Assembly (NCBI GenBank): GCA_027021705.1
Contig: JALUTT010000016.1
Span: forward strand, 1-17,777
From: Anaerolineae bacterium
GTDB taxonomy: Bacteria; Chloroflexota; Anaerolineae; S140-20
Length of the DNA stretch: 17,777 bases
Direction: 5' to 3'
Shown: piece by piece, positions 1,259 to 17,604 of the stretch
Layout: each line of letters opens with the position of its first letter
Position numbering within the stretch: the stretch's first letter is position 1
Position numbers and translations under genes: made by a program
The notes under the pieces: generated by a model
What the model was told of the DNA's origin: nothing
The model's input: the letters and a program-made list of their open reading frames with translations, nothing else
Database searches by the model: none

Positions 1259-1334
1259 AAGGTTCCGAGGCTTGAGAGGGCAAGCGGGGATGTCCGGCAG
1301 GGGCATCCCCGCCCGCCTGTCCGTTGGACACGAT

Positions 1335-3356
1335 ATGATGCTCACCGGACGCAAAGGTCTGAAGCAACCCCTTGCCGAGCTGACCCTGCTGGGTGCGCTA
1401 CTGCTCCTGGCTGCTTGGCTGCGCCTCCACCGCCTGGATCAGGTGGAGTTCCTATGGGACCAGGCCGAGATCTCCAAATGGGCGCTGCGGATGGCCCGAG
1501 AGGGGGAGATCGCCTGGGTTGGCCCTCCCTCCTCTACGGGCGTCTACTCCTTCCTGGGGACCGTCTGGCTGATGGCGATCCCCTACGCCCTCTCCCCCAG
1601 CCCCATCCTCGCCACCGGCTTCGTCGCCTTCCTCAACGTTGTCGCCGTGCTGGGCTGCTACCTCCTGGCCCGCCGTTGGTTTGGCCGTCAGGCCGCGCTG
1701 GCCTCCACCCTTCTCTTCGCCGTCGCCCCCTGGGCAGTGATCTACTCGCGCAAAATCTGGCAGGTGGAGCTTCTGATCCCCTTCACCCTCCTCTACGCCG
1801 CCACCGGCTGGTGGGCCTTCGTGAAGGGGAAGGGCTGGGCAGTGCCGGCCCACGCCCTGGCCCTCGCCTGGCTGATCCAGGTCCATCTCTCGGCCATCGC
1901 CCTCGTCCCGCTGACCGGCCTCTGGACGCTCCTCTTCTGGCGGCGGCTGGCCTGGCGGTGGGTGCCCCCGGCGATCCTCCTGGCCGCCCTCCTCTTCGTT
2001 CCCTACCTCCTCTTCGACGCCCGCCACCAGTGGTTCAGCATCCGGCGCTTTCTGGAGGTGACGCAACATCCGGCTACTCTGGATGCCAGCGCCCTCCACG
2101 CCGTCTGGATCAACACGACCGGGCTGGACCTCCACTGGCTGACCGGCCCGGACCGCTACCCGGAGTTCACCGCCGCCACGCCCAACCTGCGCAGCCTCTT
2201 CGTCGTAGAAGGGGGCCTGGCCTTCGGCGCTGCCCTCCTGGCCCTGCTCCGGGCGGCCCGCCAGGCCCGCCGAGGGCTCGACGGGGAGACGGCAGCCGCC
2301 CTGATGGCGGCCACCTGGCTGGTGATGCCCATCCTCTTCTACACCCGTCACGTCGTGCCCATCGCGCCCCACTACGTCACGACCATCTTCCCCGCCCCCT
2401 ACCTCCTCATCGGCTGGCTGGTCCAGCGGGTGGCCTCCTGGGACCACCCCAGGGCACGGTCCTACGCCCTCGCCCTGGGGCTGCTGGTCGGGGCCATCGC
2501 CCTGGCCCAGCTCCGCGAGATCACCGGCCTGCTCCGCTTCGTCACCACCCACGATACGCTGCGGGGGTACGACACCCCCTTGGGCTACGACGTCCGGGCG
2601 GCCCAAACAGCCCTCCGACTGGGCCGGGCGATGGACGACGCCGAGGTGATCCTGCTCTCCGAAGGGGATGAGCCCCGTTCCTACGAGATGCCGGCCACCG
2701 CCGACGTGCTCCTCTACGGCTACCCCCACCGAGCCGTGGACATCCGCACCGCCCTCGTGCTGCCCGCCGGTCCGGCGGTCTACTGGGCCACTTACGCGAT
2801 GACGCCCGGCGAAGCCCTCCTCGCCACCTTCGCCCAGGAGGTCCCGGAGGCCCGCCTTCCCCTCCGTGAGGGCAAGCGGACCTACCGCTTCTACCGCTGG
2901 CCCGGCGGCTCCCCCACCATCCCCGACTTGCAACGGCTGCCCCGGCCCCTGCGCTGGGCCAACGGCGCCCAACTGATCGGCTACCGGATCGCCGGTGACC
3001 TCCGCCCCGGCGGCACCCTCCGCTGGACACTGGTCTGGCAGCCCGCCCGCACCCCCGATGAGGACGTCTACTACCACTGGTTCAACCACCTGCTGGACGA
3101 CCAGGGAACCTTTCGAGGGCAGCGGGATGGCCCCAGCCTGCTCCCCGCCTACTGGCGGGCCGGAGACACCATCCTGAACTGGTTCGAGATCGCCATCCCC
3201 GCCGACGCCCCTCCCGGCGACTACCGGATGCGGGTGGGGATGTACACCTATCCGGCCCTGGAGAACGTCCCGCTCCTGGACGAGGCCGGCCGACCGGCCG
3301 GGGAGTGGGCCGAGATCGGCCCCATCCCCATCGGACGAGGAAGCGCTGGCCGATGA
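1335..3356 (+). CDS. GT-C fold membrane glycosyltransferase (ArnT/PMT-like) with C-terminal beta-sandwich domain
   Basis: N-terminal TM with LRLHRLD..FLWDQAE acidic loop, about 10 further hydrophobic segments, LARRWFGRQAAL and APWAVIYSRKIW motifs. The C-terminal domain reads QLIGY..PGGTLRWTLVWQ..WFNHLLD..QRDG..PPGDYRMRVGMY. Start is uncertain (ATG 1335/1338 chosen over TTG 1272). Confidence 0.8.
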   Translation: MMLTGRKGLKQPLAELTLLGALLLLAAWLRLHRLDQVEFLWDQAEISKWALRMAREGEIAWVGPPSSTGVYSFLGTVWLMAIPYALSPSPILATGFVAFLNVVAVLGCYLLARRWFGRQAALASTLLFAVAPWAVIYSRKIWQVELLIPFTLLYAATGWWAFVKGKGWAVPAHALALAWLIQVHLSAIALVPLTGLWTLLFWRRLAWRWVPPAILLAALLFVPYLLFDARHQWFSIRRFLEVTQHPATLDASALHAVWINTTGLDLHWLTGPDRYPEFTAATPNLRSLFVVEGGLAFGAALLALLRAARQARRGLDGETAAALMAATWLVMPILFYTRHVVPIAPHYVTTIFPAPYLLIGWLVQRVASWDHPRARSYALALGLLVGAIALAQLREITGLLRFVTTHDTLRGYDTPLGYDVRAAQTALRLGRAMDDAEVILLSEGDEPRSYEMPATADVLLYGYPHRAVDIRTALVLPAGPAVYWATYAMTPGEALLATFAQEVPEARLPLREGKRTYRFYRWPGGSPTIPDLQRLPRPLRWANGAQLIGYRIAGDLRPGGTLRWTLVWQPARTPDEDVYYHWFNHLLDDQGTFRGQRDGPSLLPAYWRAGDTILNWFEIAIPADAPPGDYRMRVGMYTYPALENVPLLDEAGRPAGEWAEIGPIPIGRGSAGR

Positions 3357-5404
3357 GGGCGATGACGAAGCGCCGAGAATGGACTGCCCTGTTGCTCCTC
3401 TTCCTCCTGGCGGCCGGGCTCCGCTGGTGGGCCCCGTTGGCCGTCCCTCCCGGCCTGGAGATGGACGAGCTGATCGAGGCCCAGATCGCGGAGCAGGTGC
3501 TCCAGGGGGATTGGCGGCCCTTCTACGAGGCCGGTCAGGGGCGGGAAGGGCTCTACCACTACTGGCTGGCCGGCTGGCTGGCGATCCTGGGCCGGCGTCT
3601 CTTCACGCTGCGGGTCGCCTCCTCGATGCTGAGCCTGCTGGGGCTGGCCGCCGGCTACATCCTGACCCGCCGCCTCTTCGGCCCGGCGGTGGCGCTGGTC
3701 GCCCTGGCGGGCGGGGCAGCCTCCTTCTGGACCCTCTTCGCCGCCCGCTCCGGGCTGCGCTCCACCAGCCTCCCCCCGTTGGCCGCGCTGGCCGGCTACT
3801 TCTTCTGGCGGGGGCTCGCCCCTCGCGCCGTCCGCAGGGCCGGGGGGCGCTCCCGGCTGCTCCTGGCCGCTGCCGGCCTCTTCCTGGGCCTCACCTTTTA
3901 CGCCTACACGGCGGCCCGGGTGCTGCCGGCCGTCTTCCTCCTCTTCGCCCTCTACCTGGGGGCCTTCCACCGGGATTGGCTGGCCGGGCGGATGCAGGCG
4001 TTGTTCCTGGGGGGGCTCGTCGCCCTGCTGGTGATGCTCCCCCTGCTGCGCTACCTGCAAACCCATCCCGAGGCCGACCAGTTCGACTTCCTCGACTTCA
4101 ACCGCCCGCTGGCGGCGCTGGAGCAGGGCAATCCGGAGCCGGCGCTGCGGACCACGCTGGCGACCCTGGGGATGTTCACCTTCCGGGGGGATCCCCTCAT
4201 CTTCGACAACGTGCCCGGCCGGCCCGTCTTCGACCCCCTCAACGGCCTGCTCTTCCTGGCCGGCGTGGGGATCGCCCTGGCCCGCCTCCGCCGTCCCGCC
4301 TATGCCTTCGCCCTCCTCTGGCTCCTCGTCAGCCTGGTGCCGGGGATGCTCAGCCAGCCGGCGCCCAACTTCTACCGGACCGTCGGCGCTCAGGTCGTCG
4401 CCTTCGCCTTCCCCGGCCTGGCTCTCGTGGAGGTCGTCCGCCGCTGGCGACGCCGCCGGTCAGGATGGGCAGGGCGGCCGGCCCTGGTCGGCGGGGCGGC
4501 CCTCCTGCTGGCGGTCCACCTGGTCGGCAACGGGCGGGCCTACTTCGCCACCTGGCCCCGGGTGGAAGGGATCCGCTTCTTCTGGCAGAGTGGGCTGGCC
4601 GAGGCGGCCCGCTATCTGGACCGCACGCCCGACGACGGCCCCGTCGTCCTCTGCACCGTCCTCACCTACGAGCACGATCCCTGGTGGCGGCCCGCCTGGC
4701 AGAGCATGCCCTACCTCCTCCGCCGCACCGACCTGGCGATCCGCTACCACGACTGCCGGACGGCGCTGGTGCTCCCGGCGGGCCGGCCCGTGCGCTACCT
4801 CTTCCCCGAGGCCCCCGACCCCGCCGCCCTGGTCTCCGACGGGCTCTGGGGGCCGGTGCTGACGGCCGCGACGCTGGTCCCCGGGGCCTTCCCCTCGGGC
4901 CAGGGGGCGCTGCTCCGGCTGGACGGACCGCTCCCGGCGGTGGGGCCGACCTCGGGGGCCGTCCGGTGGGCGCCCGAGGCGGGGGGCGGCCCGGCCTCGC
5001 TGCCGGTCGCCTTCGGCCAGAGCCTGCGCCTCCTGGGCTACCGGCGCGCCCCGGCCCACCCCCGCCCCGGCGACCGACTGCGCCTGGTCACCGCCTGGGA
5101 GGTGCAGGCACCGCCGCCGCCACGCCTGGCCCTCTTCACCCACCTCCTCGCCGACCCCCAGACGCTGGTGGCCCAGCAGGACGGCCTGCCGCTGACCTCT
5201 CACAGCCTGCGTCCGGGAGATCGGTTCCTGGTGCTCCACGATCAGGTCCAACTTCCGGCGGAACTGCCCGCCGGCACCTACCTCCTCTCCATCGGCCTCT
5301 ACCGGAGCGACACGATGGAGCGGCTGCCCCTCCACGAGGGGGCCCGGCCACGAGGCGACCGCCTCTTCCTGGAGCCCGTCGTCGTCACCGAGGAGTCGCG
5401 ATGA
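3353..5404 (+). CDS. GT-C fold membrane glycosyltransferase (ArnT/PMT, GT39/GT83-like) with C-terminal beta-sandwich domain
   Basis: ATG 3353 overlaps the upstream stop (ATGA). Motifs LRWW..VPPGLEMDE (DE acidic pair), GREGLYHY, LTRRLFG and GLTFYAYTAAR, with many TM segments. C-terminal FGQSLRLLGY..FTHLL..QQDG..GTYLLSIGLY domain. Confidence 0.85.
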   Translation: MRAMTKRREWTALLLLFLLAAGLRWWAPLAVPPGLEMDELIEAQIAEQVLQGDWRPFYEAGQGREGLYHYWLAGWLAILGRRLFTLRVASSMLSLLGLAAGYILTRRLFGPAVALVALAGGAASFWTLFAARSGLRSTSLPPLAALAGYFFWRGLAPRAVRRAGGRSRLLLAAAGLFLGLTFYAYTAARVLPAVFLLFALYLGAFHRDWLAGRMQALFLGGLVALLVMLPLLRYLQTHPEADQFDFLDFNRPLAALEQGNPEPALRTTLATLGMFTFRGDPLIFDNVPGRPVFDPLNGLLFLAGVGIALARLRRPAYAFALLWLLVSLVPGMLSQPAPNFYRTVGAQVVAFAFPGLALVEVVRRWRRRRSGWAGRPALVGGAALLLAVHLVGNGRAYFATWPRVEGIRFFWQSGLAEAARYLDRTPDDGPVVLCTVLTYEHDPWWRPAWQSMPYLLRRTDLAIRYHDCRTALVLPAGRPVRYLFPEAPDPAALVSDGLWGPVLTAATLVPGAFPSGQGALLRLDGPLPAVGPTSGAVRWAPEAGGGPASLPVAFGQSLRLLGYRRAPAHPRPGDRLRLVTAWEVQAPPPPRLALFTHLLADPQTLVAQQDGLPLTSHSLRPGDRFLVLHDQVQLPAELPAGTYLLSIGLYRSDTMERLPLHEGARPRGDRLFLEPVVVTEESR

Positions 5405-5438
5405 GTCGCTGAGTCGAAGGATCCCTGAGTTCTAAGCG

Positions 5439-7670
5439 ATGCCGATACGCCGTGATCTTCCCGAACGATCCATACCCTGGCCCATCGCCGGCATCCTGCT
5501 GGCCTTCGTCCTCCTGGCCGGCGCGGTCAGCGTGGTGAACCCCCTCTTCGAGTCCACCGACGAGATCCGCCACTACCGCTACATCCGCCGTCTGGTCGTC
5601 GAGCACCGGCTGCCCGTCCAGGGGGCCGAGCGGGTCCGCTCTCAGAGCCACCACCCGCCCCTCTACTACCTGCTCAGCGCCCTCGCCAGCGGTTGGGTGC
5701 CCTCGCCCCACACGCCCGAGTACCAGCAGCCCATCAACCCCTTCTGGGGCTACCGGCTCTGGGAGGTGAGCGTGGACAACAAGCTCCAGTACTGGCACGG
5801 CCTGGCGGAGCGGTTCCCCTTTCGGGAGGGCTACCTGGCGGCGGTGATCCCCCGCTGGGTCAACGTCCTGCTGGGGGCCGTGACGGTCTGGCTGACCTAC
5901 CGGCTGGGGCGGCGGGTGTGGCGGGAGCACCCCGCCCTGGCCTGGGGGGCGGCGGCCCTGGTCGCCTTCAACCCCCAGTTCCTCTACCTGAGCGGGGCGA
6001 TGAACAACGACATCATCGCGGCGGCCACGGGCACGGCGGTGTTGCTGGTGAGCCTGGAGGTGGCCCAGGAGGGGTTGCAGCGGGACCGGCTGCTCCGGCT
6101 GGGGCTGGCCTACGGGCTGGCGCTCCTGGCCAAGTTCCACCTGGTCACCCTAGGGGGCATCATCGCCCTGGCCCTCGCCCTGGGGGTGGTCGGGTGGTCC
6201 GGTGGTCCGGTGGTCCGGTGGTCGGGTGGCCGGGCGTTGGGGCGCTGGCTGGGAGGGATGGGGGTCGTGCTGGGGGTGGCCGCCCTCCTCGCCGGATGGT
6301 GGTTCCTGCGCAACTGGTGGCTCTACGGCGACCCCACCGGCCTCAACAAGGTCAACGAGCTCTGGTTGGGCCGCCCGGCCGGGGGCAACTGGTGGGCCCT
6401 CTGGCAGGGACTGCCCTACCTCTGGAGCAGCCTCTGGGGGCGCTTCGGCTACGGCCAGATCCCCCTGCCCCAGCCCATCTACAGCGGCCTGCTCGCCTTC
6501 GTCCTCCTGGCGCTGGGGGGATACCTACGCCCCCGCCGCGCCGAATCCCCAACGCCGATCCTGGCCCTGGGCCTGCTCCTGACCACCGTCCTCGCCTTCA
6601 CCGCCGTCGTCTTCTACTACATCCTGATCCAGCCGGCGGGGCCGATGGGGCGCTTTCTCTTCCCCGCCCTGCCCGCCTTCGCCGTGCTCCTGGTGGGGGG
6701 GCTGCACCGCTGGCTGCGGCGGCCGGTCTGGACCGCCGGAGGGGTGGCCGTGGGGATGGGGCTCCTAGCCCTGGTGGCCCTGGGGGGGTACCTGGCCCCG
6801 GCCGTCCGCTACCCGCCTCCGGCCCCCTCCCCGCCCCCCGGTCGCCCGCTGGAGGTCCGCTTCGGCGACGTGGCCCGGCTGCTCGCCGTCGAGGTCCACC
6901 CCACCACCCTCCGCCCCGGCGAGCCCCTCTTCGTCACCGTCACCTGGGAGCCGCTGCGCCGGACCGAGCGCCCCTACACCGTCTACGTCCACCTGATAGA
7001 CGAGGCCGACGTGCTCATCGCCCAGCGGGATACCTGGCCGGGGCTGGGTCGGGCCCCGACGACGGGCTGGCAGCCGGGCCGTCCCTTCGTGGACACCTAT
7101 CGGGTGGACCTCCCCGAGACGGCCTACGCGCCGGACCGGGCCGCCGTGCGGGTGGGGCTCTACGAGGCGACCTCGGGCCGGCTCCCCGCCTTCGGCTCCG
7201 ACGGGGAGCCCCTGGGGGACGGCGTGGCCGTGGGGACGGTGACGGTGGAGCCCCGCCCCGGCCCCTGGCCCAACCCCCTGGAGGCCAACTTCGGGGACGA
7301 GATCGCCCTGGTGGGTTACCGGCTGGAGCCGCGCACGCTGCGGGCCGGTGAGACCTTCACGCTGACCCTCTACTGGAGGCCGCTGAAGGAGCCTCGGTAC
7401 GACTACCTGGTCTTCGCCCAGGTGATTGACCCGGCCTGGCAGGTGTGGGGCAGCCGGGATGGGGCCGGGCCGGGCTGGACGCCGGGGCAGGTCGTCGAGG
7501 ATGTGCGTCGGATCACGCTGCGGCCCGATGCGCCGCCGGGCAGCTACCCCATCCAGGTGGGGCTCTTCCACGGTGAGACGGGCCGCCTCCCCGTCCTGGC
7601 CCCCGACGGCCACCACAAGGACGAGCGGGTGCTGTTGGGGCCGGTTCGGGTGAGGGGGGAGGGGGAGTGA
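5439..7670 (+). CDS. GT-C fold membrane glycosyltransferase-like protein (DUF2142/PMT-like) with two C-terminal beta-sandwich repeats
   Basis: Motifs PLFESTDEIRHYRY, HHPPLYY, FNPQFLYLSGAMNND, GLALLAK, WWFLRNWWLYGDPTG, SLWGRFG and GRFLFPA. Two C-terminal repeats start at FGDVARLL and FGDEIALVGY. Confidence 0.8.
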   Translation: MPIRRDLPERSIPWPIAGILLAFVLLAGAVSVVNPLFESTDEIRHYRYIRRLVVEHRLPVQGAERVRSQSHHPPLYYLLSALASGWVPSPHTPEYQQPINPFWGYRLWEVSVDNKLQYWHGLAERFPFREGYLAAVIPRWVNVLLGAVTVWLTYRLGRRVWREHPALAWGAAALVAFNPQFLYLSGAMNNDIIAAATGTAVLLVSLEVAQEGLQRDRLLRLGLAYGLALLAKFHLVTLGGIIALALALGVVGWSGGPVVRWSGGRALGRWLGGMGVVLGVAALLAGWWFLRNWWLYGDPTGLNKVNELWLGRPAGGNWWALWQGLPYLWSSLWGRFGYGQIPLPQPIYSGLLAFVLLALGGYLRPRRAESPTPILALGLLLTTVLAFTAVVFYYILIQPAGPMGRFLFPALPAFAVLLVGGLHRWLRRPVWTAGGVAVGMGLLALVALGGYLAPAVRYPPPAPSPPPGRPLEVRFGDVARLLAVEVHPTTLRPGEPLFVTVTWEPLRRTERPYTVYVHLIDEADVLIAQRDTWPGLGRAPTTGWQPGRPFVDTYRVDLPETAYAPDRAAVRVGLYEATSGRLPAFGSDGEPLGDGVAVGTVTVEPRPGPWPNPLEANFGDEIALVGYRLEPRTLRAGETFTLTLYWRPLKEPRYDYLVFAQVIDPAWQVWGSRDGAGPGWTPGQVVEDVRRITLRPDAPPGSYPIQVGLFHGETGRLPVLAPDGHHKDERVLLGPVRVRGEGE
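6185..6232 (+). repeat. Intragenic octamer tandem repeat (GGTGGYCS)x6
   Basis: ggtggtcg ggtggtcc ggtggtcc ggtggtcc ggtggtcg ggtggccg; 48 bp, which keeps the reading frame. Confidence 0.9.
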
Positions 7671-7690
7671 GGTGGTGAGGGGGTGAGGCA

Positions 7691-8698
7691 ATGAGGGGAC
7701 GGGGCGATGAGGCAACGAGGGGGGGAGGGGGCGCGAGGCGCGTCATCGGCCGGCTGGGCCGGCGCCGGGGGGCCATCTTCCGCCTGCTGGTCAGCCTGGG
7801 GGTGCTGACCTTCGTGCTGACGACCATCGGCCTGGAGCGGATCGGGCAGGTCCTGCTGACCGCCTCGCCCGGTCCCATCCTCCTGGCCTTCCTGCTCTTC
7901 GTCGCCGGCATCGTGGTGCGGGCGGCCCGCTGGCGGGTCCTGCTCCGCGCCCTGGGGGTCCACGTGCCCTTCGGACGGCTGGTCCACCTTTACTTCGCCG
8001 GCACCTTCTTCAACGCCTTCCTGCCCTCCGGCTTCGGCGGGGATGTCGTCCGTGTCCTGGAGATCGCCCAGGAAGCCCGCGCGGCGGCGGCCTTGGGCAC
8101 CGTGGTGGTGGACCGGATGACGGGGCTGATGGTCCTCTTCGCGATGGCCCTGCTGGCCCTCCCCTTCAGCCGTCGGTTGCTGCCCTGGGAGGTCTGGCTG
8201 GCCATCGGGGGGATGGCGGCGGCCGGGCTGGTCGCCGGTGGACTGGTCCTGCACGGGCGCTGGCTGCGCCGGCTGGGAGACCGGCTGCCCGGCCCCTTCT
8301 CCCTGACCGGCAGCGGGGCGCTGGCCCGGGCCTACGATGCCGTCACCGCCTGTGGCTGGCGGGCCGTGGGGCAGGCGCTGGCCCTCTCCCTCGTCTTCAA
8401 CACCCTCCTCATCCTGGTCAACTACCTGACCGCCCTGGCGGTGGGGATGCGTCTCAGCCTCGTCTACTTCCTGCTCTTCGTGCCCGTCTTCTCCGTGATG
8501 CTGATCCTCCCCGTCTCCATCGGCGGGCTAGGGGTGCGGGAGGGGATGGCGGTGCTCCTCTTCACCCAGGTGGGCGTGGACCGGGCGGTGGCCGTCGCCG
8601 CCTCCCTGGCCGTCTACGCCGTCTCCCGGGCGACGGGGCTCCTGGGCGGGCTGCTCTACTTGGTCCAGAGCCTCCGGGCCCTGCGCTCTCCCCGATAG
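7691..8698 (+). CDS. Lysylphosphatidylglycerol synthase TM-region / UPF0104 flippase-like membrane protein
   Basis: Motifs RAARWRVLL, GTFFNAFLPSGFGGDVVR, VVVDRMTGL and LPVSIGGLGVREG are typical of this family, with about 8 TM segments. The exact start is uncertain. Confidence 0.88.
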   Translation: MRGRGDEATRGGGGARRVIGRLGRRRGAIFRLLVSLGVLTFVLTTIGLERIGQVLLTASPGPILLAFLLFVAGIVVRAARWRVLLRALGVHVPFGRLVHLYFAGTFFNAFLPSGFGGDVVRVLEIAQEARAAAALGTVVVDRMTGLMVLFAMALLALPFSRRLLPWEVWLAIGGMAAAGLVAGGLVLHGRWLRRLGDRLPGPFSLTGSGALARAYDAVTACGWRAVGQALALSLVFNTLLILVNYLTALAVGMRLSLVYFLLFVPVFSVMLILPVSIGGLGVREGMAVLLFTQVGVDRAVAVAASLAVYAVSRATGLLGGLLYLVQSLRALRSPR

Positions 8699-8773
8699 TC
8701 CGCAGCAACGGGCAGATGGAAGACGCGATTCATACGCAAGCTGCGATAAAGGGGAGTCACCACGAGCCCCGCC

Positions 8774-8862
8774 GGTGATTACCCATATCTTTGGAGATTT
8801 TGTGAGAAATTCGTGGACGGCTTGCTACGGACCACTCTCTCGCTCCCTTGTGGGTAATCACC
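8774..8862. mobile_element. MITE-like 89-bp element with perfect 12-bp terminal inverted repeats and flanking direct repeat (copy 2)
   Basis: GGTGATTACCCA (8774-8785) pairs with TGGGTAATCACC (8851-8862). Flanks ACGAGCCCCGCC (8762-8773) and ACGAGCCCCGCT (8863-8874) match 11/12. The interior is more AT-rich than the flanking genes. Confidence 0.6.
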
Positions 8863-8920
8863 ACGAGCCCCGCTCTTGCGTCGGAGCCGGGATGATGTTA
8901 CAATTCTTGGCAGCGCCGGC

Positions 8921-9175
8921 CGCAGTCCGCAGTCCGCTGTTTGGTCGGGTGGTCGCTTGGTCGCTTGGTCCGCAGTCCGCGGTCCGCAGTCCACAGTCCT
9001 CAGTCCGCTGCTAGGCCGCTAGATCGCTAGGTCGCCAGGCCGCTTGATCGGCGGTCGGCGGTCAGCCGTCGGCGGTCGTTGATCGGCGGTCGTATCCGGC
9101 CTCGGTCCGCCGCTAGGTCGCTAGGCCGCCAGGCCGCTTGCCCTCTGCCCCTTGCTCCTTGCCCCTTGTCCCTTG
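8921..9175. repeat. Patchwork of short (7-8 nt) tandem repeats
   Basis: Consecutive blocks of (CGCAGTC)n, (TTGGTCGC)n, (CTAGGYCG)n, (GGCGGTC)n and (CCCCTTG)n. Confidence 0.85.
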
Positions 9176-9360
9176 CGGCGGGGGTGGTGGGGCTGGTGCC
9201 CTTCGTGCCGCTGATGCGAGGGGCGGACGAGGGGGTGATCCGGCGGGGGGTGGAGGTGCTGCGGGAGCGGGGGGTGGGGGAGGAGGTCGAGGCGGCGCTG
9301 GCCTTGTTTGCCAGCTTCGTGATGGAGCCGGAGCAAGTGCGGCAGATTGTGAGGTGGGAT

Positions 9361-9681
9361 ATGGCGGTTCTGAAGGAATCACCCTGGTACAAGCGAATCC
9401 TGGAGGAGGGCCTCCAGCAGGGCCTCCAACAGGGGCTTCAGCAGGGCCTCCAGCAAGGGCTCCGGCAGGGGCTGCTGGAGGGCCGGCGGGAGGACATTCT
9501 GCACCTGCTGCGGGTGCGGTTTGACCCGACGGGGCCGGCGCTGGAGCCCATCGCCGAGAAGCTGGCCGAGATCGAGGAGGCCGGCCTGCTCCAGGACCTG
9601 CTGGTGGAGGCGATGCGGACGGAGAGCCTGGATACCTTCCAGCGGAGGCTATCGCTGCTGTCAGAGAACTCCTCGGAGTAG
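9361..9681 (+). CDS. Putative RpnS-like small protein (106 aa) from an internal start
   Basis: Shine-Dalgarno-like GAGGTG at 9351-9356 lies before in-frame ATG 9361. The product contains the GLQQ repeats and a helical tail. Confidence 0.5.
   Translation: MAVLKESPWYKRILEEGLQQGLQQGLQQGLQQGLRQGLLEGRREDILHLLRVRFDPTGPALEPIAEKLAEIEEAGLLQDLLVEAMRTESLDTFQRRLSLLSENSSE
9409..9480 (+). repeat. 12-bp coding repeat encoding (GLQQ)x4-GLRQ-GLLE
   Basis: ggcctccagcag ggcctccaacag gggcttcagcag ggcctccagcaa gggctccggcag gggctgctggag. Confidence 0.9.
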
Positions 9682-9727
9682 TCTTCTTTCTTAAACCGAC
9701 CCATCGTGGCCGCATCGCCTTATCGCC

Positions 9728-12040
9728 TTGCCACCCTACACCTTCAACCGCGTGTCGCAGAAATTGAGGAAACACAGCCCCATCCCGGTCCTGCTGGCCC
9801 TTTTCGTCCTGCTCCCCTTCTGGGACCTGCTCTGGACACCTGAGACCCAGGTTGTGGCCGGCAACGACCTGCTCTTTATGTTCCTCCCCTGGTGGCGCTT
9901 CGCCCAGGAAAGCCTGCGCCAGGGGGAGCTTCCCCTGTGGAACCCCTACCTCTTCTCCGGGGTGCCTTTCCTGGCCAACCCCCAACCGGCCCTCTTCTAC
10001 CCGCCCGTCTGGCTCATCGGTCTCCTGCCGCTCACCCGGGCGGCGGGCTTGCTCTTCTTCCTGCACCTCTGGCTGGCCGGCCTGGGCACCTATGGCTGGC
10101 TTCGCGCCGAGGGCGCGGACCGATGGGGGAGCCTCTTCGGCGCGGTCGCCTTCGCCTTCAACGGCTACTTCGCCGTGCGCATCTACGGCGGCCACTTGGG
10201 CGTGGTGATGACCCAGGCCTGGCTCCCCGTCGTGCTCTGGGCCGCCCGCCGGGCCATCGAGGGGAGATCGCTGCGCCGGGCGGTGCTGGGTGGCCTCCCC
10301 GTCGCCCTCTCCCTGCTGGCCGGCCACACCGCCTCTTTCCTGTACGTGGGGCTGGTCCTGGCCGCCTACGCCCTCTACCTGGCCTGGCGGGCTTGGCGGC
10401 AGGCCCCGACCCCTGCCTCGGGCTGGGCCTCGCTCCGGACCGGCCTCCTCCCCCTGCTCCTGACCGGCACGATGGTCCTGACCGGCCTGGGCCTGGCGGC
10501 GGTCCAACTGCTCCCCACCTGGGAACTGGTCCGCCACTCCGTCCGCCAGGAGGCCTCCTACGCCTTCGCCGCCCAGTACGCCTGGCCGCCGGGCTACCTG
10601 CTGACGCTGCTCGTCCCCAACTTCTTCGGCGAGCCGGTTCGGGCCGGCTACTGGGGCGTGGAGATCTACACCGAGTTCATCTTCTACACCGGCCTGCTGC
10701 CCCTCCTGCTGGCCTTGGCCTTGGGGAGCCGGCTGCGCCACCGGTTGGTCCCCTTCCTGCTCCTGCTGGCGGGGGCCGGGCTGCTGCTGGCGATGGGGCC
10801 GGCCACCATCCTGCACCGCCTGGCTTACGACTTCCTGCCCCTCTTCCGCTCAACGCGGGCGCCGGCCCGGGCCGGCTTCCTCTTCGCCTTCGCCGTCGCT
10901 GCCCTGAGCGGGCTGGCCCTCACCCGGATGCGCCAGAGGCCCGACGAAGCCCGGTCGGCCCTTCGGGGATGGGTTCAGGGACCGCTGCCCTGGCTGGTCG
11001 GCACCCTGGCCACCCTCGTCGCCCTGACCGGGTTCCTCCTCTTCGGCCTGCAGCGGGACAGCAACGCGCAGGTGGGCCGGCTCTGGCACGTCGCCAACTA
11101 CGTGGCCCTCTTCCTGCTCTTCTTCCTCCTGGCGGTGGGGCTGGTACGGGCCTGGCTGGCGGGACGGGTGACGGGCCGGCAGGGGGCCACCCTCGCCATC
11201 GGCCTGGTCCTGCTGGACCTGTGGAGCTTCGGACGCCCCCTGATCCAGACCGTCCCGGCAACGGAGAGCGGCTACTGGCGCACCGTCGCCCAGGTGGTGG
11301 GCGAGGCCGGGAAGACAGGACGTGTGCTCCCTTGGGGGCTGACCATCTTCGAGCACAACCAGGGGATGGTTCTGGGGCTGGAGAGCGTCTTCGGCTACGA
11401 CCCGCTGGAACTGGAGCGGTACTACCGCTTCACCACCGCCGTCTCGGACCCCCGGGCGCGGGCCTACGACCTCTTGGGAGCCCGCTACCTGGTGACCGGC
11501 CAGGAGATGACCTTTCCCGACGAGGTGGATGCCCCTCGGCTGCTCGCCCACCGGGGGGATCTCTGGGTCTACGAGCGCCCGACCGCCTTCCCGCCGGCCT
11601 GGCTGGTCCACCGGGCGGAGGTGCTGAGCGCCGAGGAGGTGCTGGCGCGGCTCAACGACCCGGCCTTCGACCCCCGGCAGGTGGCCCTGCTGGAGGCCGA
11701 TCCCCCCTGCACGCCGACCGGTGCCGAGGGGCCGGCCCCGGAGGGGGAAGCGGTGCGCTTCTCCCGGCAGGGGAACAATCGCCTCGAGGTTGAGGTCGAG
11801 GCGGCCTCGGAGGGCCTACTGGTGCTGGGCGAGGTCTTTTACCCCGGCTGGCGGGCGACGGTGGATGGGAAGCCAGCCCCCGTCCTGCGGGCCGACTACG
11901 CCCTGCGGGCCGTCTGTGTGCCGGCCGGAACCCACCGGATCACCCTCACCTTTGCCCCCCTCTCCTTCCGCCTCGGTGCCGGGATCAGCCTGCTCTCCCT
12001 CCTGCTCCTCGTCGTCGCGCTGTTCTGGGGGAGGCGGTGA
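9728..12040 (+). CDS. YfhO-family membrane protein (GT-C type glycosyltransferase)
   Basis: N-terminal GELPLWNPYLFSGVPFLANPQPALFYP, then GGHL, LLAGH, GLAAVQLLP and FRSTRAPAR. C-terminal GLLVLGEVFYPGWRATVDG..VLRADYALRAVCVPAGTHRI plus a terminal TM helix. The start may be GTG 9752 or TTG 9764. Confidence 0.85.
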   Translation: MPPYTFNRVSQKLRKHSPIPVLLALFVLLPFWDLLWTPETQVVAGNDLLFMFLPWWRFAQESLRQGELPLWNPYLFSGVPFLANPQPALFYPPVWLIGLLPLTRAAGLLFFLHLWLAGLGTYGWLRAEGADRWGSLFGAVAFAFNGYFAVRIYGGHLGVVMTQAWLPVVLWAARRAIEGRSLRRAVLGGLPVALSLLAGHTASFLYVGLVLAAYALYLAWRAWRQAPTPASGWASLRTGLLPLLLTGTMVLTGLGLAAVQLLPTWELVRHSVRQEASYAFAAQYAWPPGYLLTLLVPNFFGEPVRAGYWGVEIYTEFIFYTGLLPLLLALALGSRLRHRLVPFLLLLAGAGLLLAMGPATILHRLAYDFLPLFRSTRAPARAGFLFAFAVAALSGLALTRMRQRPDEARSALRGWVQGPLPWLVGTLATLVALTGFLLFGLQRDSNAQVGRLWHVANYVALFLLFFLLAVGLVRAWLAGRVTGRQGATLAIGLVLLDLWSFGRPLIQTVPATESGYWRTVAQVVGEAGKTGRVLPWGLTIFEHNQGMVLGLESVFGYDPLELERYYRFTTAVSDPRARAYDLLGARYLVTGQEMTFPDEVDAPRLLAHRGDLWVYERPTAFPPAWLVHRAEVLSAEEVLARLNDPAFDPRQVALLEADPPCTPTGAEGPAPEGEAVRFSRQGNNRLEVEVEAASEGLLVLGEVFYPGWRATVDGKPAPVLRADYALRAVCVPAGTHRITLTFAPLSFRLGAGISLLSLLLLVVALFWGRR

Positions 12041-12206: not shown

Positions 12207-12277
12207 GGGGTGTTGCGGGGGCGTCCGATTGGTATGCACATAATGTTCTCCCTTGAGTGTCGCAAGGAGGTGCTGTA

Positions 12278-12544
12278 ATGAGGGATACGACCCGGGTCAC
12301 GGTGGTGCTTCCCGTCGCGCTCTGGGAAGAGGTGAAGGAAATGGTCCCTGCCGGCCAGCGCTCCCGGCTGGTCGCCGAGGCCCTGGAGGCGGAAATCCGC
12401 CGGCGGAAGCGTCTGGAGCAACTGGAGCGTCTACGGCGGTTCCAGGACTACCTCCTAGAAAAGTATGGGGAGATGCCCAGCAGCGTGGAGGATATCCGTC
12501 AGATGCGGGAGGAACGCGATGCCGAGATCACTGGTCTGCGTTGA
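12278..12544 (+). CDS. vapB: Ribbon-helix-helix type antitoxin (VapB-like)
   Basis: RBS AAGGAGG at 12264-12270 before ATG 12278. TRVTVVLP..LWEEVKEMVPAGQRSRLVAEAL fits an RHH pattern, the tail IRQMREERD is typical, and the gene overlaps the downstream PIN gene. Confidence 0.75.
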   Translation: MRDTTRVTVVLPVALWEEVKEMVPAGQRSRLVAEALEAEIRRRKRLEQLERLRRFQDYLLEKYGEMPSSVEDIRQMREERDAEITGLR

Positions 12545-12965
12545 TGCTAACATCGTCGTTGCCCTGGTCACGGTCGAACGGCTTAGCCGCCGAGCGCTCT
12601 CCCTCTGGCAGGAATGGTCCCAGGGAACCTGGCAGCCGATCGCACCGCTCCTCCTACGCTACGAAGTGACTTCTGCTCTACACCGCAAAGTCGTGCGGGG
12701 GATGATGGACGCGCAAGATGCCTATCAGGCGTTGCAAGAAGCGTTCGCTCTGGACATCCAGTATTTCGACCCGCCGGGGCTCTCGGAGCGGGCCTTCGAG
12801 CTGGCCGCCCGTTTCCAGCGGCCGGCCGCTTACGACGCCCACTACCTGGCCCTGGCCGAGCACCTGGACTGTGCCTTCTGGACGGCCGACGAGCGCCTCT
12901 ACAACGCCGTCCGCGCCGAGTTCCCCCTCATCCGCTGGTTGGGGGACTACCAACCCGATGACTGA
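12519..12965 (+). CDS. vapC: PIN-domain ribonuclease toxin (VapC-like)
   Basis: VCVDANIVV, YEVTSAL, AYDAHYLALAE and FWTADERL supply the conserved acidic PIN residues. ATG 12519 follows a GGAGGA RBS and overlaps the antitoxin gene. Confidence 0.9.
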   Translation: MPRSLVCVDANIVVALVTVERLSRRALSLWQEWSQGTWQPIAPLLLRYEVTSALHRKVVRGMMDAQDAYQALQEAFALDIQYFDPPGLSERAFELAARFQRPAAYDAHYLALAEHLDCAFWTADERLYNAVRAEFPLIRWLGDYQPDD

Positions 12966-13248: not shown

Positions 13249-13572
13249 GTGTGGGAAGGAAGGGACGATAAGCGGGTCAAGCTGCTGATGCAATGGGACA
13301 TCCGTCCCGGCTATGAGGCTGCTTACTTCGAGTTCGTCGTGCGGGAGTTCGCCCCAGGGCTGATGCGGCTGGGACTGCAGCCGACGGACGTCTGGTACAC
13401 GGTCTACGGGGACCATCCCCAGATTCTGGCCGGCAGCATCGCCGAGGACCTGCCGACGATGCGGCGCATCCTGCAGAGCCCGGAGTGGGAGGCCCTGCTG
13501 GAGCGGCTCTTCCAATACGTGCAGAACTTCCAGAAGAAGATCGTCCCCGCCCGCGAGCGATTCCAGCTTTAA
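13249..13572 (+). CDS. Small hypothetical protein (possible NIPSNAP/dimeric alpha-beta barrel-like fold)
   Basis: Purine-rich RBS region GAGGAGAAGGAG just upstream and GC3-rich codons. VKLLMQWDIRPGYEAAYFEFVVREFAPGL looks like a real globular protein; the fold is an inference. Confidence 0.7.
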   Translation: MWEGRDDKRVKLLMQWDIRPGYEAAYFEFVVREFAPGLMRLGLQPTDVWYTVYGDHPQILAGSIAEDLPTMRRILQSPEWEALLERLFQYVQNFQKKIVPARERFQL

Positions 13573-13615
13573 CCTCGAGAGGATGGCTCGACGAGCCGAC
13601 GAAAGGAGTGAGAAT

Positions 13616-14983
13616 TTGCGCAAGTGGATCTGGCTTGGTATAGGATTGCTGGCAGCCCTGCTGCTGGCCGCATGCACCGGTGCCGGGACGGCGGAGAAGG
13701 CCACCGCTCCACCGGCCACCGAAGTTGCCGCTTCACCGACGGAAGGCACCCTTCCCTCCCCTACGCCGACCGAGGTCGCTGTCACACCGACCGAAGCCGC
13801 TGCCGAGGCCACACCGGCTGAGCCTCCTGTCTCGGCCGCAGACCTCCCGCTGGGCACAGGTCAGGATGCCTGTCGCCTCTTCCAGGGTGTCCAAGTGCCC
13901 CCTGCCTCCACGGAACCCCCGCCCTGGCAGATCCCCGAAGTGAGCGAGGAGGACTGGGTCCGGGGGGCCAAAGACCCGATCCTGACCATCGTCGAGTACG
14001 GCGATTTCCAGTGACCGTACTGCGCCTCTTTGGCACCAACTCTGGATGAGTTGGTTCAGAAACACGGTGACGAAATCCAGTTGGTCTACCGCCACTTCCC
14101 CCTCAACTCCATCCACGATAAGGCCCAGATCGCTGCCGAAGCTACCGAAGCCGCCGGTGCGCAGGGGGCTTTCTGGGAGATGCATGATCTCATCTTCGCC
14201 AACCAGCAAATGATGAACCAGCAGGACTTGGAGACCTACCGGGAAACGCTGGTGGGCTTTGCCGAGCAGCTAGGGCTGGACGTGGATCGCTTCCGCAAAG
14301 AGCTGGTGGACGGAACCTACAAGGACAAGGTGGAACAGGCGACCCAGGCGGCGATGGAATTGGGCCTGGGTGGTACTCCCGCCATCTTCATCAACGGGCA
14401 GTTCTGGCAGGGTCCCCGTGACCTCTACATCTTCGAGGCGATCCTGGAACTGGAGAAGCTGCGCAGCCGCCAGTACGCCGAAGCGCCCCCGGTGAAGATT
14501 GACCCCGAGAAGCAGTACGTGGCGACCTTCTACACCGATAAGGGGGAGATCGTCGCCCAGCTCTACGCCAAGCAGGCCCCCATCGCCGTCAACAGCTTCA
14601 TCTTCCTGGCCTGCCAGGGCTGGTTCGATGGCGTCACCTTCCACCGGGTGCTCCCCGGCTTCGTCGCCCAGACGGGCGACCCCACCGGGACCGGCTTCGG
14701 TGGTCCGGGCTACCGCTTTGGGAACGAGATAGACCCCCAGCTCACCTTCGATGGGCCGGGGGTCCTGGCGATGGCCAACGCCGGCCGTCCCAACACCAAC
14801 GGCAGTCAGTTCTTCTTCACCTACGACGCCCTGCCCGATCTGAACGGCAACTACACCATCTTCGGGCGGGTGATCCAGGGGATGGATGTGCTGGAGTCGC
14901 TGACGCCCCGAGATCCCCAGCAGGACCCCTCGGCCCCGCCAGGGGACCGGATCCAGTCCATCACGGTGGAGGAGTTGGAGTAG
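13616..14983 (+). CDS. Selenocysteine-containing DsbA-like (thioredoxin-fold, UxxC) / cyclophilin-type PPIase fusion lipoprotein, 455 aa, Sec at residue 133
   Basis: ORFs 13583..14014 and 14030..14983 share one frame and are separated only by TGA 14012-14014, giving IVEYGDFQ-U-PYCASLAP. The neighbouring paralog aligns as LIEYADFQ-C-LAC. A SECIS-like hairpin follows. AAGGAG (13603-13608) favours a TTG 13616 start, with signal peptide and lipobox LAAC. The DsbA part has YRHFPL and GGTPAIFING; the cyclophilin part has FHRVLPGFVAQTGD, AMANAG..TNGSQFF and YTIFG. Confidence 0.85.
14029..14060 (+). promoter_or_regulatory. Bacterial SECIS-like hairpin
   Basis: Perfect 8-bp stem ACCAACTC (14035-14042) / GAGTTGGT (14048-14055) with a 5-nt loop TGGAT. 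The loop has G at position 2 and starts 28 nt after the UGA. The stem extends by TTTGG/TCAGA with one bulged C. Confidence 0.75.
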
Positions 14984-14987
14984 CTCG

Positions 14988-16280
14988 GTGGGGCGGAGAG
15001 GTGCCCGGACGGGCCTGCTCATCCTGGTCCTGATCCTGGTCACAGGCTGGCTCCTCTGGCAGTGGTCTGTCCGGGCAAGCTTTCCCGCCCCATCGTTGCC
15101 TTCACCCTCGCCGACGCCGACGCTGCGTTCCAGCGCGACGCCCGTTCCCTCACCGACCCCTACCGCCAGTCCCGTCGCGCCCGTTGCGCTGCAGGACCCC
15201 CCTCCTCCCTCCCCGACACCTACGCCCACCCCAGGCCCTCCCCCCCTCTCCTCGTCCGACTGGGTGCGGGGGCCGGAGGAGGCAAAGGTCACGCTGATCG
15301 AGTACGCCGACTTCCAGTGCCTGGCCTGCGCGACGCTGGCCGGCTGGCTGACGCGCCTGTCCGATGAAGTGCCGGGGGGCGTGCGCTTGGTCTACCGCCA
15401 CTATCCCCTCCCTAAGCTCCACGACCGGGCCGTGGTAGCTGCTGAGGTCGCCGAAGCAGCGGGTGCCCAAGGCCGCTTCTGGGCGATGCACGACCTCCTA
15501 TACTGGCGTCAGGACGAGTGGACAAAGGTGCCCGAAGAGAACCTGCTCGACCTGTGGGTCGGTTACGCCCGGGAGCTGGGTCTGGACACGGACCGCTTCC
15601 GACGGGATCTGGAGAGCCGGCGCTATCGGCGTCGCGTCCTGGATGCCTACCAGGCTGCCGCGTCCATCCCCATGGCCGGCGTCCCCACCCTCTTCATCAA
15701 CGGCGTGCGCTATCGGGGGCCCCTGAACCGACAATCGCTGTCGGCGATGCTCCAGGTCGCCGCCCAGCGCCCTCTCTACCCCGCCCCTCCACCGATGACA
15801 CTGGACCTGACCCACACCTACACGGCCACGCTGGTCACCCGCCACGGCGAGATCGTCATCCGGCTGCACCCGGAGTGGGCCCCCCAGGCGGTGAACAGCT
15901 TCGTCTTCCTGGCCCGTCAAGGCTGGTACGATGGCCTCCCCTTCCACACCGTCCTGCCGGGCCGGCTGGCGGTCACCGGGGACCCCAGTGGGACCGGGTT
16001 GGGAGGGCCGGGATACTACCTGCCCGACGAGATCATCGCTGCACTGCGCTTCAACCGACCTGGGCGGGTCGCCCTGGCCAACGAGGGTTGGCCCAACACC
16101 GGCGGCAGTCAGTTCTTCATCACCGCGCAACCGGCTCCTGAGTTGGATGGCCGCTACACCATCTTCGGTCAGGTCGTGTCGGGCCTGGAGGTGCTGGATG
16201 CCCTCACCCCCAGCCGACCAGGCCCTGAGGGAGTCAGAGATGCGGATCTCCTGGAACGGGTTATCATCGAGGAGCGATAA
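14988..16280 (+). CDS. Membrane-anchored DsbA-like (CxxC) / cyclophilin-like fusion, Cys paralog of the upstream selenoprotein
   Basis: N-terminal TM helix, Pro/Thr/Ser linker, DWVRGP..IEYADFQCLAC, YRHYPL and GVPTLFING, then a cyclophilin-like domain (AVNSFVFLARQGWYDG, NTGGSQFF, YTIFG). It starts 4 nt after the upstream stop. Confidence 0.88.
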   Translation: MGRRGARTGLLILVLILVTGWLLWQWSVRASFPAPSLPSPSPTPTLRSSATPVPSPTPTASPVAPVALQDPPPPSPTPTPTPGPPPLSSSDWVRGPEEAKVTLIEYADFQCLACATLAGWLTRLSDEVPGGVRLVYRHYPLPKLHDRAVVAAEVAEAAGAQGRFWAMHDLLYWRQDEWTKVPEENLLDLWVGYARELGLDTDRFRRDLESRRYRRRVLDAYQAAASIPMAGVPTLFINGVRYRGPLNRQSLSAMLQVAAQRPLYPAPPPMTLDLTHTYTATLVTRHGEIVIRLHPEWAPQAVNSFVFLARQGWYDGLPFHTVLPGRLAVTGDPSGTGLGGPGYYLPDEIIAALRFNRPGRVALANEGWPNTGGSQFFITAQPAPELDGRYTIFGQVVSGLEVLDALTPSRPGPEGVRDADLLERVIIEER

Positions 16281-16284
16281 GCCT

Positions 16285-17604
16285 ATGGACACCTCCCCGC
16301 CGACGCTTCCCCAAGGGCAACCTGTCGAAGGCATAGGGGGGCAGCCGGTCTCCTCCCCACCTCCGCCCTCCCAGGCGCGCCAAGCCGGACTGGTCCTGCT
16401 GGTCCTCAGCGGATGTGGCGTGATGCTCTGCTTGGTTGGAACGGGGCTTCTGGTCCTCTTCGTGGGCCTGGCGGAGGGTGCCGGGGAGGCGGATTCCTGG
16501 TTCATCGCCGTGGGCCTCCTGGCTCTGGGGCTGGGCCTGGCCCTGCCCCTCACCTGGCAGGGCGGTGCGGCGCTGCTGAGACGCCCCTCGGCTCCTTTCA
16601 CTCCCCGACGCGCCTGGCCTTTGGCCCTCCTCTTCTTCGTCGCCTTGGCGGGCGGTCAGCTTGTGCTGATCCTGAAGTTGATGCCCGGGGTGGTGATGCC
16701 CTTCTTCCACCTCATCGCGACGGTAGTCCCGCCACTGCTCGTCGTCGCGCTGGTAGCCCGCCACCTGCACCGCAGGGCCGGCTTGCGCTTCAGCCGACGG
16801 GAGGTGATCTTCCACCTGGCAGCCGGAGCGCTGGGGGCCACCTTTCCCGCCCTGATCCTGGAGGGGATCGGTGCCCTCTTCCTGGTCCTCTTCCTCGCTG
16901 TGGGCATCCTCGTCCTGCCGGGCGGCGAAGCTTACCTGGAGGCCCTCCGACAACAGTTGGAGATGGTCGGCCAGTTACCCGACGCTGACCGGGCAATGGC
17001 TCTGCTCCGGCGGCCGGAAGCCATCCTCTTCCTGTTGCTCCTCTTCGCCGTCATCACCCCTCTGGTCGAGGAGTTCCTCAAGCCCTGGGCGGCTGTGCTC
17101 TTGAGCGGCCGCCGCCGTCCGCCTCCAGGACGGGTCTTCTTCTGGGGGGTTGTCGCGGGAGCAGGCTTCGCCATCGCCGAGGGCTTCTTCAACGTCGCCC
17201 TCTCCGTGGGGGTCTGGACGGCCACGGCCCTGCTGCGGGCGGTGACGGCCACGCTCCACAGCTTGGGGACGGGGGTGGTCGCGCTGGGGTGGGGCCGTTT
17301 CTGGACCGAGCGGCGAGCCGGTCCGCTGCTGGGAGGCTACCTGCTGGCCTTGGTCCTCCACGCCCTCTGGAACGGGGCCATCGTGGGGCTGCAGGTGGTC
17401 GGAGCCTTCCTGGCCTGGTCGGAAGGCGGTCAGGGGGCGGAGGCGCCGACCCCCTACCTGCCCGCGCTGATCCTCCTGGCAGTGCTGGCGATGAGCCTGT
17501 TGGGGATGCTGCTGGTGGCGGTGCCGGGCCTCTTAGCTGCCGTCACCCGGCGGGTGGCCGTCCAGGAGGCCTCCCGAGAGGCCGGCTCCTTGACCGACGG
17601 CTGA
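16285..17604 (+). CDS. PrsW-family intramembrane glutamic/metalloprotease
   Basis: Multi-TM protein with PLVEEFLK, GAGFAIAEG, ATLHS and LHALWN motifs. ATG 16285 lies 4 nt after the upstream stop with GAGGAG before it; the longer 15931 start is spurious. Confidence 0.85.
   Translation: MDTSPPTLPQGQPVEGIGGQPVSSPPPPSQARQAGLVLLVLSGCGVMLCLVGTGLLVLFVGLAEGAGEADSWFIAVGLLALGLGLALPLTWQGGAALLRRPSAPFTPRRAWPLALLFFVALAGGQLVLILKLMPGVVMPFFHLIATVVPPLLVVALVARHLHRRAGLRFSRREVIFHLAAGALGATFPALILEGIGALFLVLFLAVGILVLPGGEAYLEALRQQLEMVGQLPDADRAMALLRRPEAILFLLLLFAVITPLVEEFLKPWAAVLLSGRRRPPPGRVFFWGVVAGAGFAIAEGFFNVALSVGVWTATALLRAVTATLHSLGTGVVALGWGRFWTERRAGPLLGGYLLALVLHALWNGAIVGLQVVGAFLAWSEGGQGAEAPTPYLPALILLAVLAMSLLGMLLVAVPGLLAAVTRRVAVQEASREAGSLTDG

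Follow-up and report, generated by a model that had tools for sequence, protein, structure and literature searches.

We identified, in a 17,777-nucleotide stretch of contig JALUTT010000016.1 from an Anaerolineae bacterium (hereafter, the window), a gene whose product is best explained overall as a 455-amino-acid selenocysteine (Sec) lipoprotein, a tethered envelope foldase with a disulfide site and a prolyl site (probability roughly 0.8). The apparent pair of broken genes is almost certainly a single gene with an internal stop that encodes Sec. The cyclophilin-fused UxxC architecture is uncatalogued and adds to the bacterial selenoproteome. No new mechanism is involved, as UxxC DsbA/DsbG-like selenoproteins and SelB recoding are already known.

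One gene split by an in-frame TGA codon

The frame from 13616 to 14983 (+) comprises 455 codons and a sole TGA, codon 133, in the context EYGDFQ-U-PYC (Table 1). ORF calling with translation table 11 cuts the gene into 13583-14014 and 14030-14983. An earlier note on this DNA had proposed that the two ORFs are one frame broken by a single TGA, and the frame indeed reads through as 455 residues. The note had also anticipated that standard pipelines would report a pseudogene or two genes, and public protein sets do store the halves separately, with N-terminal proteins of 132 to 150 amino acids that stop at ...DFQ. A cluster of seven C-terminal halves, from several sources, held six proteins of 310 to 317 amino acids and one partial sequence. 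The 132-amino-acid products of relatives also begin at the TTG start codon. Named matches of the fusion protein were from Anaerolineae or Chloroflexi. In 46 of the 90 genes examined, roughly half of the family, gene callers would break the frame in two, a systematic mis-annotation that is corrected here.

Table 1. Coordinates of the probable Sec lipoprotein gene, its parts, and its downstream neighbors in the window.
Feature	Coordinates	Strand	Basis
Shine-Dalgarno-like AGGAG, 7 nt 5' of the TTG start	13604..13608	+	Sequence
Whole gene, probable 455-aa Sec lipoprotein: DsbA/DsbG-like domain and cyclophilin	13616..14983	+	Frame, Pfam, homologues, model
Predicted signal peptide with lipobox LAAC; Cys20 = 13673-13675	13616..13675	+	Sequence, simple pattern
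Pro/Thr/Ala-rich tether; Cys86 (13871-13873) near its end	13676..13930	+	Sequence, homologues
DsbA/DsbG-like thioredoxin-fold domain, residues 111-278; U133-P-Y-C136, Thr254-cisPro255	13946..14449	+	Pfam, structure match
In-frame TGA, inferred Sec133	14012..14014	+	Frame and homologue codons
SECIS-like hairpin: 8-bp stem, loop UGGAU, 28 nt after UGA, -11.1 kcal/mol	14035..14055	+	Folding, published-model scan
Cyclophilin domain, residues 304-450; Cys333 = 14612-14614	14525..14965	+	Pfam, alignment, structure match
Tandem paralogue, Cys form (CLAC)	14988..16280	+	Pfam, alignment, SECIS scan
PrsW-like intramembrane protease gene, conserved downstream neighbor	16285..17604	+	Neighbor profile, BLASTP

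The TGA codon in homologous genes

Of 401 genomes from the class, 90 contained the fusion (E≤1e-70), a tally that takes in the unpublished genome G388. G388 was excluded from all gene-level counts, which refer to 90 fused genes from 89 genomes. In a sample of the phylum, 29 of 301 genomes matched the fusion, and all 29 belonged to the same class. A pattern-based search of named genomes was set aside, having yielded a single fused homologue in 80 loci.

At the site of interest, 46 of the 90 fused homologues carry TGA, 36 carry TGC or TGT, and eight carry another sense codon; neither TAA nor TAG occurs at this column in any of the 90. These counts bear out the proposal that the TGA replaces the attacking Cys of the thioredoxin-fold motif and that relatives carry TGA or Cys aligned at residue 133. 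The adjacent paralogue, as the note had pointed out, reads TGC there (EYADFQ-C-LAC). The TGA is also not private to one genome, since the 46 TGA forms span nine of the 15 families. All 46 remain open for 302 to 338 codons beyond the TGA, in line with the claim that both flanks are intact. On a quick tree, unrooted except for a midpoint placement and so no guide to ancestral state or donor, 17 changes of the Sec label are required, and well-supported branches force at least 13 of them.

If the TGA were a genuine stop, a lesion in a pseudogene, or an error of assembly, this would agree with the two proteins annotated in databases and with the in-frame TTG that follows it at 14030. We nevertheless regard such an origin as highly improbable, given that 46 homologues of nine families all have TGA and never TAA or TAG, that the presence of a SECIS tracks the TGA (see below), and that the upstream half by itself stops within the thioredoxin fold. 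Sequencing error is unlikely because the N-terminal database proteins of three relatives, with 74 to 96% identity, terminate at the identical codon (...DFQ). The TGA is also covered by contigs from three further runs that belong to two other studies. None of the strain differences listed falls in the TGA, although its constancy across samples is not provable from that table of listed variants alone. Among those listed, 13 of 14 differences within the gene were synonymous, and they were located on both sides of the TGA. On this sequence evidence, purifying selection acts on both halves of the gene, which also argues against a lesion.

The SECIS-like hairpin and the Sec machinery

In the published SECIS model, as worded in the legend to Fig. 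2 of PMC13188914, the loop has 3 to 9 nt with a G within its first two nucleotides, the stem has 4 to 16 bp, the spacing is 16 to 37 nt, and the energy is ≤-7.5. We applied these constraints to unbroken stems. The hairpin in the window falls within them (loop 5, stem 8, spacing 28, and -11.1 kcal/mol). The model also recovered a SECIS in 42 of 46 Sec genes, six of 36 Cys genes, and none of the eight genes with another codon, against a background of 107 of 1,000 Cys codons and 105 of 1,090 true TGA stops in this genome. The expectation of a SECIS downstream of the TGA was thus borne out for the window and for most Sec genes. None of 200 synonymous shuffles matched the window hairpin, under a rule written after the sequences were seen. 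The fold over 100 nt had a z of only -1.6, an equally stable hairpin was found at 29 of 1,000 background Cys codons, and two further genes of this genome that probably encode selenoproteins are not picked up by the strict SECIS rule.

Spacing varied among the 46 Sec genes. The hairpin lies at 38 nt in 32 genes, at 23 nt in 10, and at 28 to 29 nt in three others, including that of the window; one gene has none of these spacings. Many Sec genes also have a shorter-range hairpin at a spacing of 17. Five Cys genes retain the hairpin at a spacing of 38, which suggests recent Sec-to-Cys changes; SECIS remnants in Cys genes have been described earlier (PMC1794560). Two homologues of family f10 (L191 and L203) have a DsbA part similar to that of the stand-alone Sec DsbA proteins and a hairpin spacing of 29. 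In these two sequences, a swapped-in domain may have carried its SECIS along.

The genome encodes selA (E 1e-136), selB (over the cut-off), a selD that carries its own TGA, and a tRNA-Sec (72.5 bits, anticodon TCA), so that the whole set of Sec genes for which the earlier note had recommended a search was found. Two more DsbA-like genes of the genome have TGA at the same motif. Of the 46 Sec genes, 44 come from genomes with a selB match, as do 29 of the 36 Cys genes. This co-occurrence discriminates little, because 340 of the 401 genomes from the class have selB (a tally that takes in the unpublished G345). The genomes of the two Sec genes with no selB hit are 80 to 87% complete and have selA; tRNA-Sec gave no match in either at E≤1e-9. 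SelB, acting on the hairpin 28 nt downstream, would with near certainty decode UGA133 as Sec.

Architecture of the predicted protein

A lipobox was detected by a simple pattern in 83 of 90 homologues, in accord with the prediction of an exported lipoprotein; among those without it, four are found where a locus ends, and the paralogue is another. The precursor would very probably be lipidated at Cys20, with the Pro/Thr tether holding the protein on the membrane's outer face. Pfam domains were DSBA/Thioredoxin_4, which runs across the TGA (residues 111 to 278), and Pro_isomerase (residues 304 to 450). The match to PF01323 scored 78.1 bits against a cut-off of 25.6, with the UxxC present. The cis-Pro is invariant in 90 of 90 homologues and is preceded by Thr in 46 of 46 Sec forms. 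The cyclophilin domain (PF00160) scored 138.5 bits, over its cut-off. It keeps R344, F349, Q352, N388, and F400, which we take to be the catalytic Arg, Phe, Gln, Asn, and Phe of cyclophilin A numbering, and it has D408 and Y413 at the Trp and His positions. This retention of catalytic residues supports the prediction of a prolyl isomerase (PPIase) part.

A model of residues 77 to 455 had a pLDDT of 95.6 and a pTM of 0.89, which implies fixed packing of the two domains. Compared with known folds, it matched cyclophilins with Z 23.5 (1zkc, rmsd 2.1, 160 residues aligned) and BdbD, alpha-DsbA2, TsdA, and ScsC with Z 18 to 21. The best match of the DsbA domain was BdbD (Z 21.1, rmsd 2.4, 176 aligned). 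No PDB chain among the matches listed covered both domains. In 46 of 46 cases a Cys in the tether is matched by a single Cys in the C-terminal half, which lies at one of three places (29, 16, and 1 genes), and where the tether Cys is missing the number of C-terminal-half Cys residues is even in 44 of 44. This co-occurrence suggests a structural disulfide, here Cys86-Cys333, which would fit an oxidizing, extracytoplasmic location. The two domains may pack rigidly, braced by this bond.

Of the 90 homologues, 58 have two active sites that look intact, 23 keep the redox site alone, nine keep the PPIase site alone, and none has lost both, counts in which kin are not independent. One site is thus degenerate in 32 of 90, never both. 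Dual catalysis is not universal, since the cyclophilin Arg/Gln pair is missing from 14 of 46 Sec forms. In family f36 (e.g., L031, L187, L192, and L194), eight homologues have Ala, Thr, Asp, or Ser in place of the attacking Cys; these eight keep the PPIase Arg and Gln, and six have a new Cys four residues upstream. In family f14 (e.g., L025, L139, and L143), all 13 homologues keep the redox motif (12 as Sec), lack the cyclophilin catalytic Arg, and have the PrsW-like neighbor described below. Further arrangements (L038 and proteins P0003 and P0005) include cyclophilin-DsbA-cyclophilin and triple-cyclophilin lipoproteins. A DsbA joined to two cyclophilins was also seen; it starts just after the motif and is possibly a cut Sec form.

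Relation to known proteins

DsbG-like and DsbA-like UxxC selenoproteins are already catalogued among the 119 families in Table 1 of PMC13188914, which agrees with the earlier statement that such DsbA-like proteins occur in bacteria. A cyclophilin fusion is not among the families of that table. The terms "prolyl" and "cyclophilin" do not occur in the main texts of PMC13188914, PMC9312934, PMC13326102, and PMC13745706, in the supplements of PMC12013277, or in the searched part of the PMC13326102 supplement. That part, which is of the BSepDB supplement, lacks "DsbG" as well; fusion genes may stand in BSepDB under a DsbG/DsbA label. In the open literature, searched by titles, starts of abstracts, and term counts, we found no paper on the DsbA-cyclophilin fusion, and the impression that the fusion had not been described as a selenoprotein held to that extent.

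The closest selenoprotein relative in layout is the DsbG-like selenolipoprotein (NF041057, Rcas_1661 family; PF13462), likewise a lipoprotein with a Pro/Thr tether, a Thioredoxin_4 domain, and UxxC. DsbG-like sequences of the deep-Sep supplement carry the same DFQUP(A/Y)C motif. The window protein, however, scored 102.7 bits against the NF041057 cut-off of 190 (103.4 for its N-terminal part alone) and adds a C-terminal cyclophilin to what the 247-position model covers; it would thus work like that family without being a member. It shares Sec at the first motif position with the DsbA-like protein form 1 selenoprotein (PF01323), for which PMC13188914 lists no cyclophilin fusion in the part consulted. 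The same architecture, at ~45 to 59% identity, is found in Cys-form Anaerolineae proteins named "cyclophilin family PPIase/protein-disulfide isomerase"; these names are automatic (JGI/NCBI), the Sec forms are stored split, and we found no characterization of the Cys-form proteins.

The monoderm-type DsbA-fold enzymes BdbD (3eu3), Corynebacterium TsdA (7unn), MdbA, and S. aureus DsbA, together with ScsC and alpha-DsbA2, resemble the window protein in fold (Z 16 to 21), and there is a sequence match to 4pwo/7unn (E 2e-18), but these proteins have neither Sec nor a cyclophilin. Against the equivalog model of E. coli-type DsbG (NF008657) the window protein scored 16 bits, with a cut-off of 124, and the structure model has no N-terminal dimerization domain of the DsbC/DsbG type. 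Francisella FipB/DsbA is a lipoprotein in which DsbA is joined to a domain derived from a PPIase family; that part is a noncatalytic FKBP N-terminal domain, lies before DsbA, and the protein has Cys only. A Francisella DsbA1 chain matched the model at Z 15.4. In its way of working, the window protein may be compared with ERp57 and cyclophilin B, a disulfide isomerase and a cyclophilin at one folding client, although these are separate eukaryotic proteins on a lectin scaffold, have no Sec, and share no family membership with it (PMC7687155).

The paralogue, the PrsW-like gene, and other redox genes

The tandem paralogue has a hydrophobic N-terminal anchor instead of a lipobox. It has no SECIS, has Val before the cis-Pro, and lies on a long branch (0.88, quick midpoint-rooted tree). 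Its cyclophilin site is degenerate, with Thr, Arg, and Val at the Arg, Phe, and Gln positions. The gaps between the fusion gene, the paralogue, and the PrsW-like gene are 4 nt.

A profile of neighbor proteins matched the product of 16285-17604 at E 2.4e-76, and BLASTP linked it at E 8e-16 to a neighbor protein that matches PF13367. The product itself gave no direct match to PF13367; its homologue scores 45.9 bits. It keeps EE, FxxxE, H, and HxxWN-type motifs, which we take to be the PrsW set. The PrsW-like gene is the sole widely shared neighbor. In 36 of 88 other loci, which represent seven families, it comes immediately after the fusion gene, and in the window the paralogue stands between the two; at least 800 bp downstream was available in 83 of 89 loci. 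It was not seen in the other 52 loci, including three from genomes of the same family with flanks of only 1.5 to 4 kb.

Neither VKOR nor DsbB was among the recurring neighbors of the 89 loci. Elsewhere in the genome, on another contig, a CPHC DsbA adjoins the only VKOR found; DsbB had no match in this 95%-complete genome. Two DsbD_TM genes scored over the cut-off, and a weak DsbD-like match lies beside one Sec DsbA. We detected neither a sigma-70 promoter close to the gene nor a terminator where these genes end, an uninformative result.

Proposed function and alternative explanations

By analogy with its families, the protein probably serves as an envelope foldase, in which UPYC would swap the disulfides of proteins just after their export, and the cyclophilin would isomerize prolyl bonds and bind the unfolded chain. 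Within that role, disulfide isomerization or repair, fed by a CcdA/DsbD-type carrier, has about an even chance of being the main task, and we slightly favor it over net oxidation through VKOR. It is favored because Thr-cisPro, common in DsbC/DsbG (PMC2665069), occurs in all Sec forms and because a separate oxidase pair, CPHC DsbA and VKOR, exists elsewhere in the genome; the DsbD_TM genes lend further support. The same selenoprotein could instead carry out net oxidation in the manner of BdbD, MdbA, or S. aureus DsbA, with VKOR to reoxidize it and the cyclophilin as a helper, which we hold to be somewhat less probable. The top structural matches of the model are a mixture of oxidases and isomerases, the best thioredoxin-fold match is the oxidase-type BdbD, with MdbA and S. 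aureus DsbA also matching, and the genome does have a VKOR. Thr-cisPro itself cuts both ways, as it raises the redox potential, making the site more oxidizing, and is native to the oxidase S. aureus DsbA (PMC2665069). The VKOR, however, already adjoins a Cys DsbA, and neither VKOR nor DsbB recurs beside the fusion genes. A selenenylsulfide is usually more stable than a disulfide, which would also disfavor net oxidation.

It is quite unlikely that the fusion is chiefly a chaperone or a scaffold for sensing stress that cooperates with the PrsW-like protease and can dispense with either catalytic site. The distribution of intact sites (58 both, 23 redox only, nine PPIase only) and the PrsW-like gene in 36 of 88 other loci and in the window would suit such a role. 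The gene was not seen in 52 of the 88, however (flanks of 1.5 to 4 kb for same-family genomes), and retention of a costly Sec with its SECIS points to catalysis.

The preferred reading, a Sec foldase engaged in isomerization or repair, could extend to the whole class. A single-chain Sec disulfide isomerase and cyclophilin would then form, with the PrsW-like protease, one envelope quality-control module, in which the SECIS has shifted (about 23, 28 to 29, or 38 nt) while the protein was conserved, with at least 13 Sec/Cys exchanges. We consider this extension rather doubtful; if true, it would provide natural Sec/Cys pairs for testing what selenium contributes to oxidative folding outside the cytoplasm. 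In any case, the family includes Sec and Cys forms, closely related to each other, of a putative extracytoplasmic folding catalyst, and its SECIS hairpins lie at differing distances within one conserved coding sequence.

Other features of the genome and the window

A codon-score selenoprotein scan, which missed the fusion gene itself and is no census, pointed to five further TGA candidates in this genome (G000): C2:39132(-), C92:71588(+), C5:46562(+), C152:54948(+), and C171:12358(-). They comprise YeeE-like, MvhD-like, rhodanese-like, and HMA-like proteins (all four labels given by eye) and an unnamed AAYURIC protein, and G-loop hairpins follow most of these TGA codons. The two stand-alone UxxC DsbA-like genes, C5:51442(+) and C171:27592(-), encode membrane-anchored proteins and have a SECIS spacing of 29; one follows a weak DsbD-like gene and the other a cytochrome c/TPR lipoprotein gene.

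Just upstream of the fusion gene, on the same strand, 13249-13572 is an ORF of 107 amino acids with weak NIPSNAP similarity (E 0.09) that was not found in the other loci. At 12257-12965, a small RHH-like ORF (weak, E 0.07) is followed by a PIN-domain ORF (E 3e-8), a VapBC-like toxin-antitoxin pair that was not seen near homologues. An ORF at 9079-9681 has QQGL repeats near its C-terminus, presumably of the kind seen in Rpn/transposase-like proteins. A run of large membrane proteins, glycosyltransferase-like by eye, occupies 1272-12040 and closes with a YfhO-domain protein (9728-12040).
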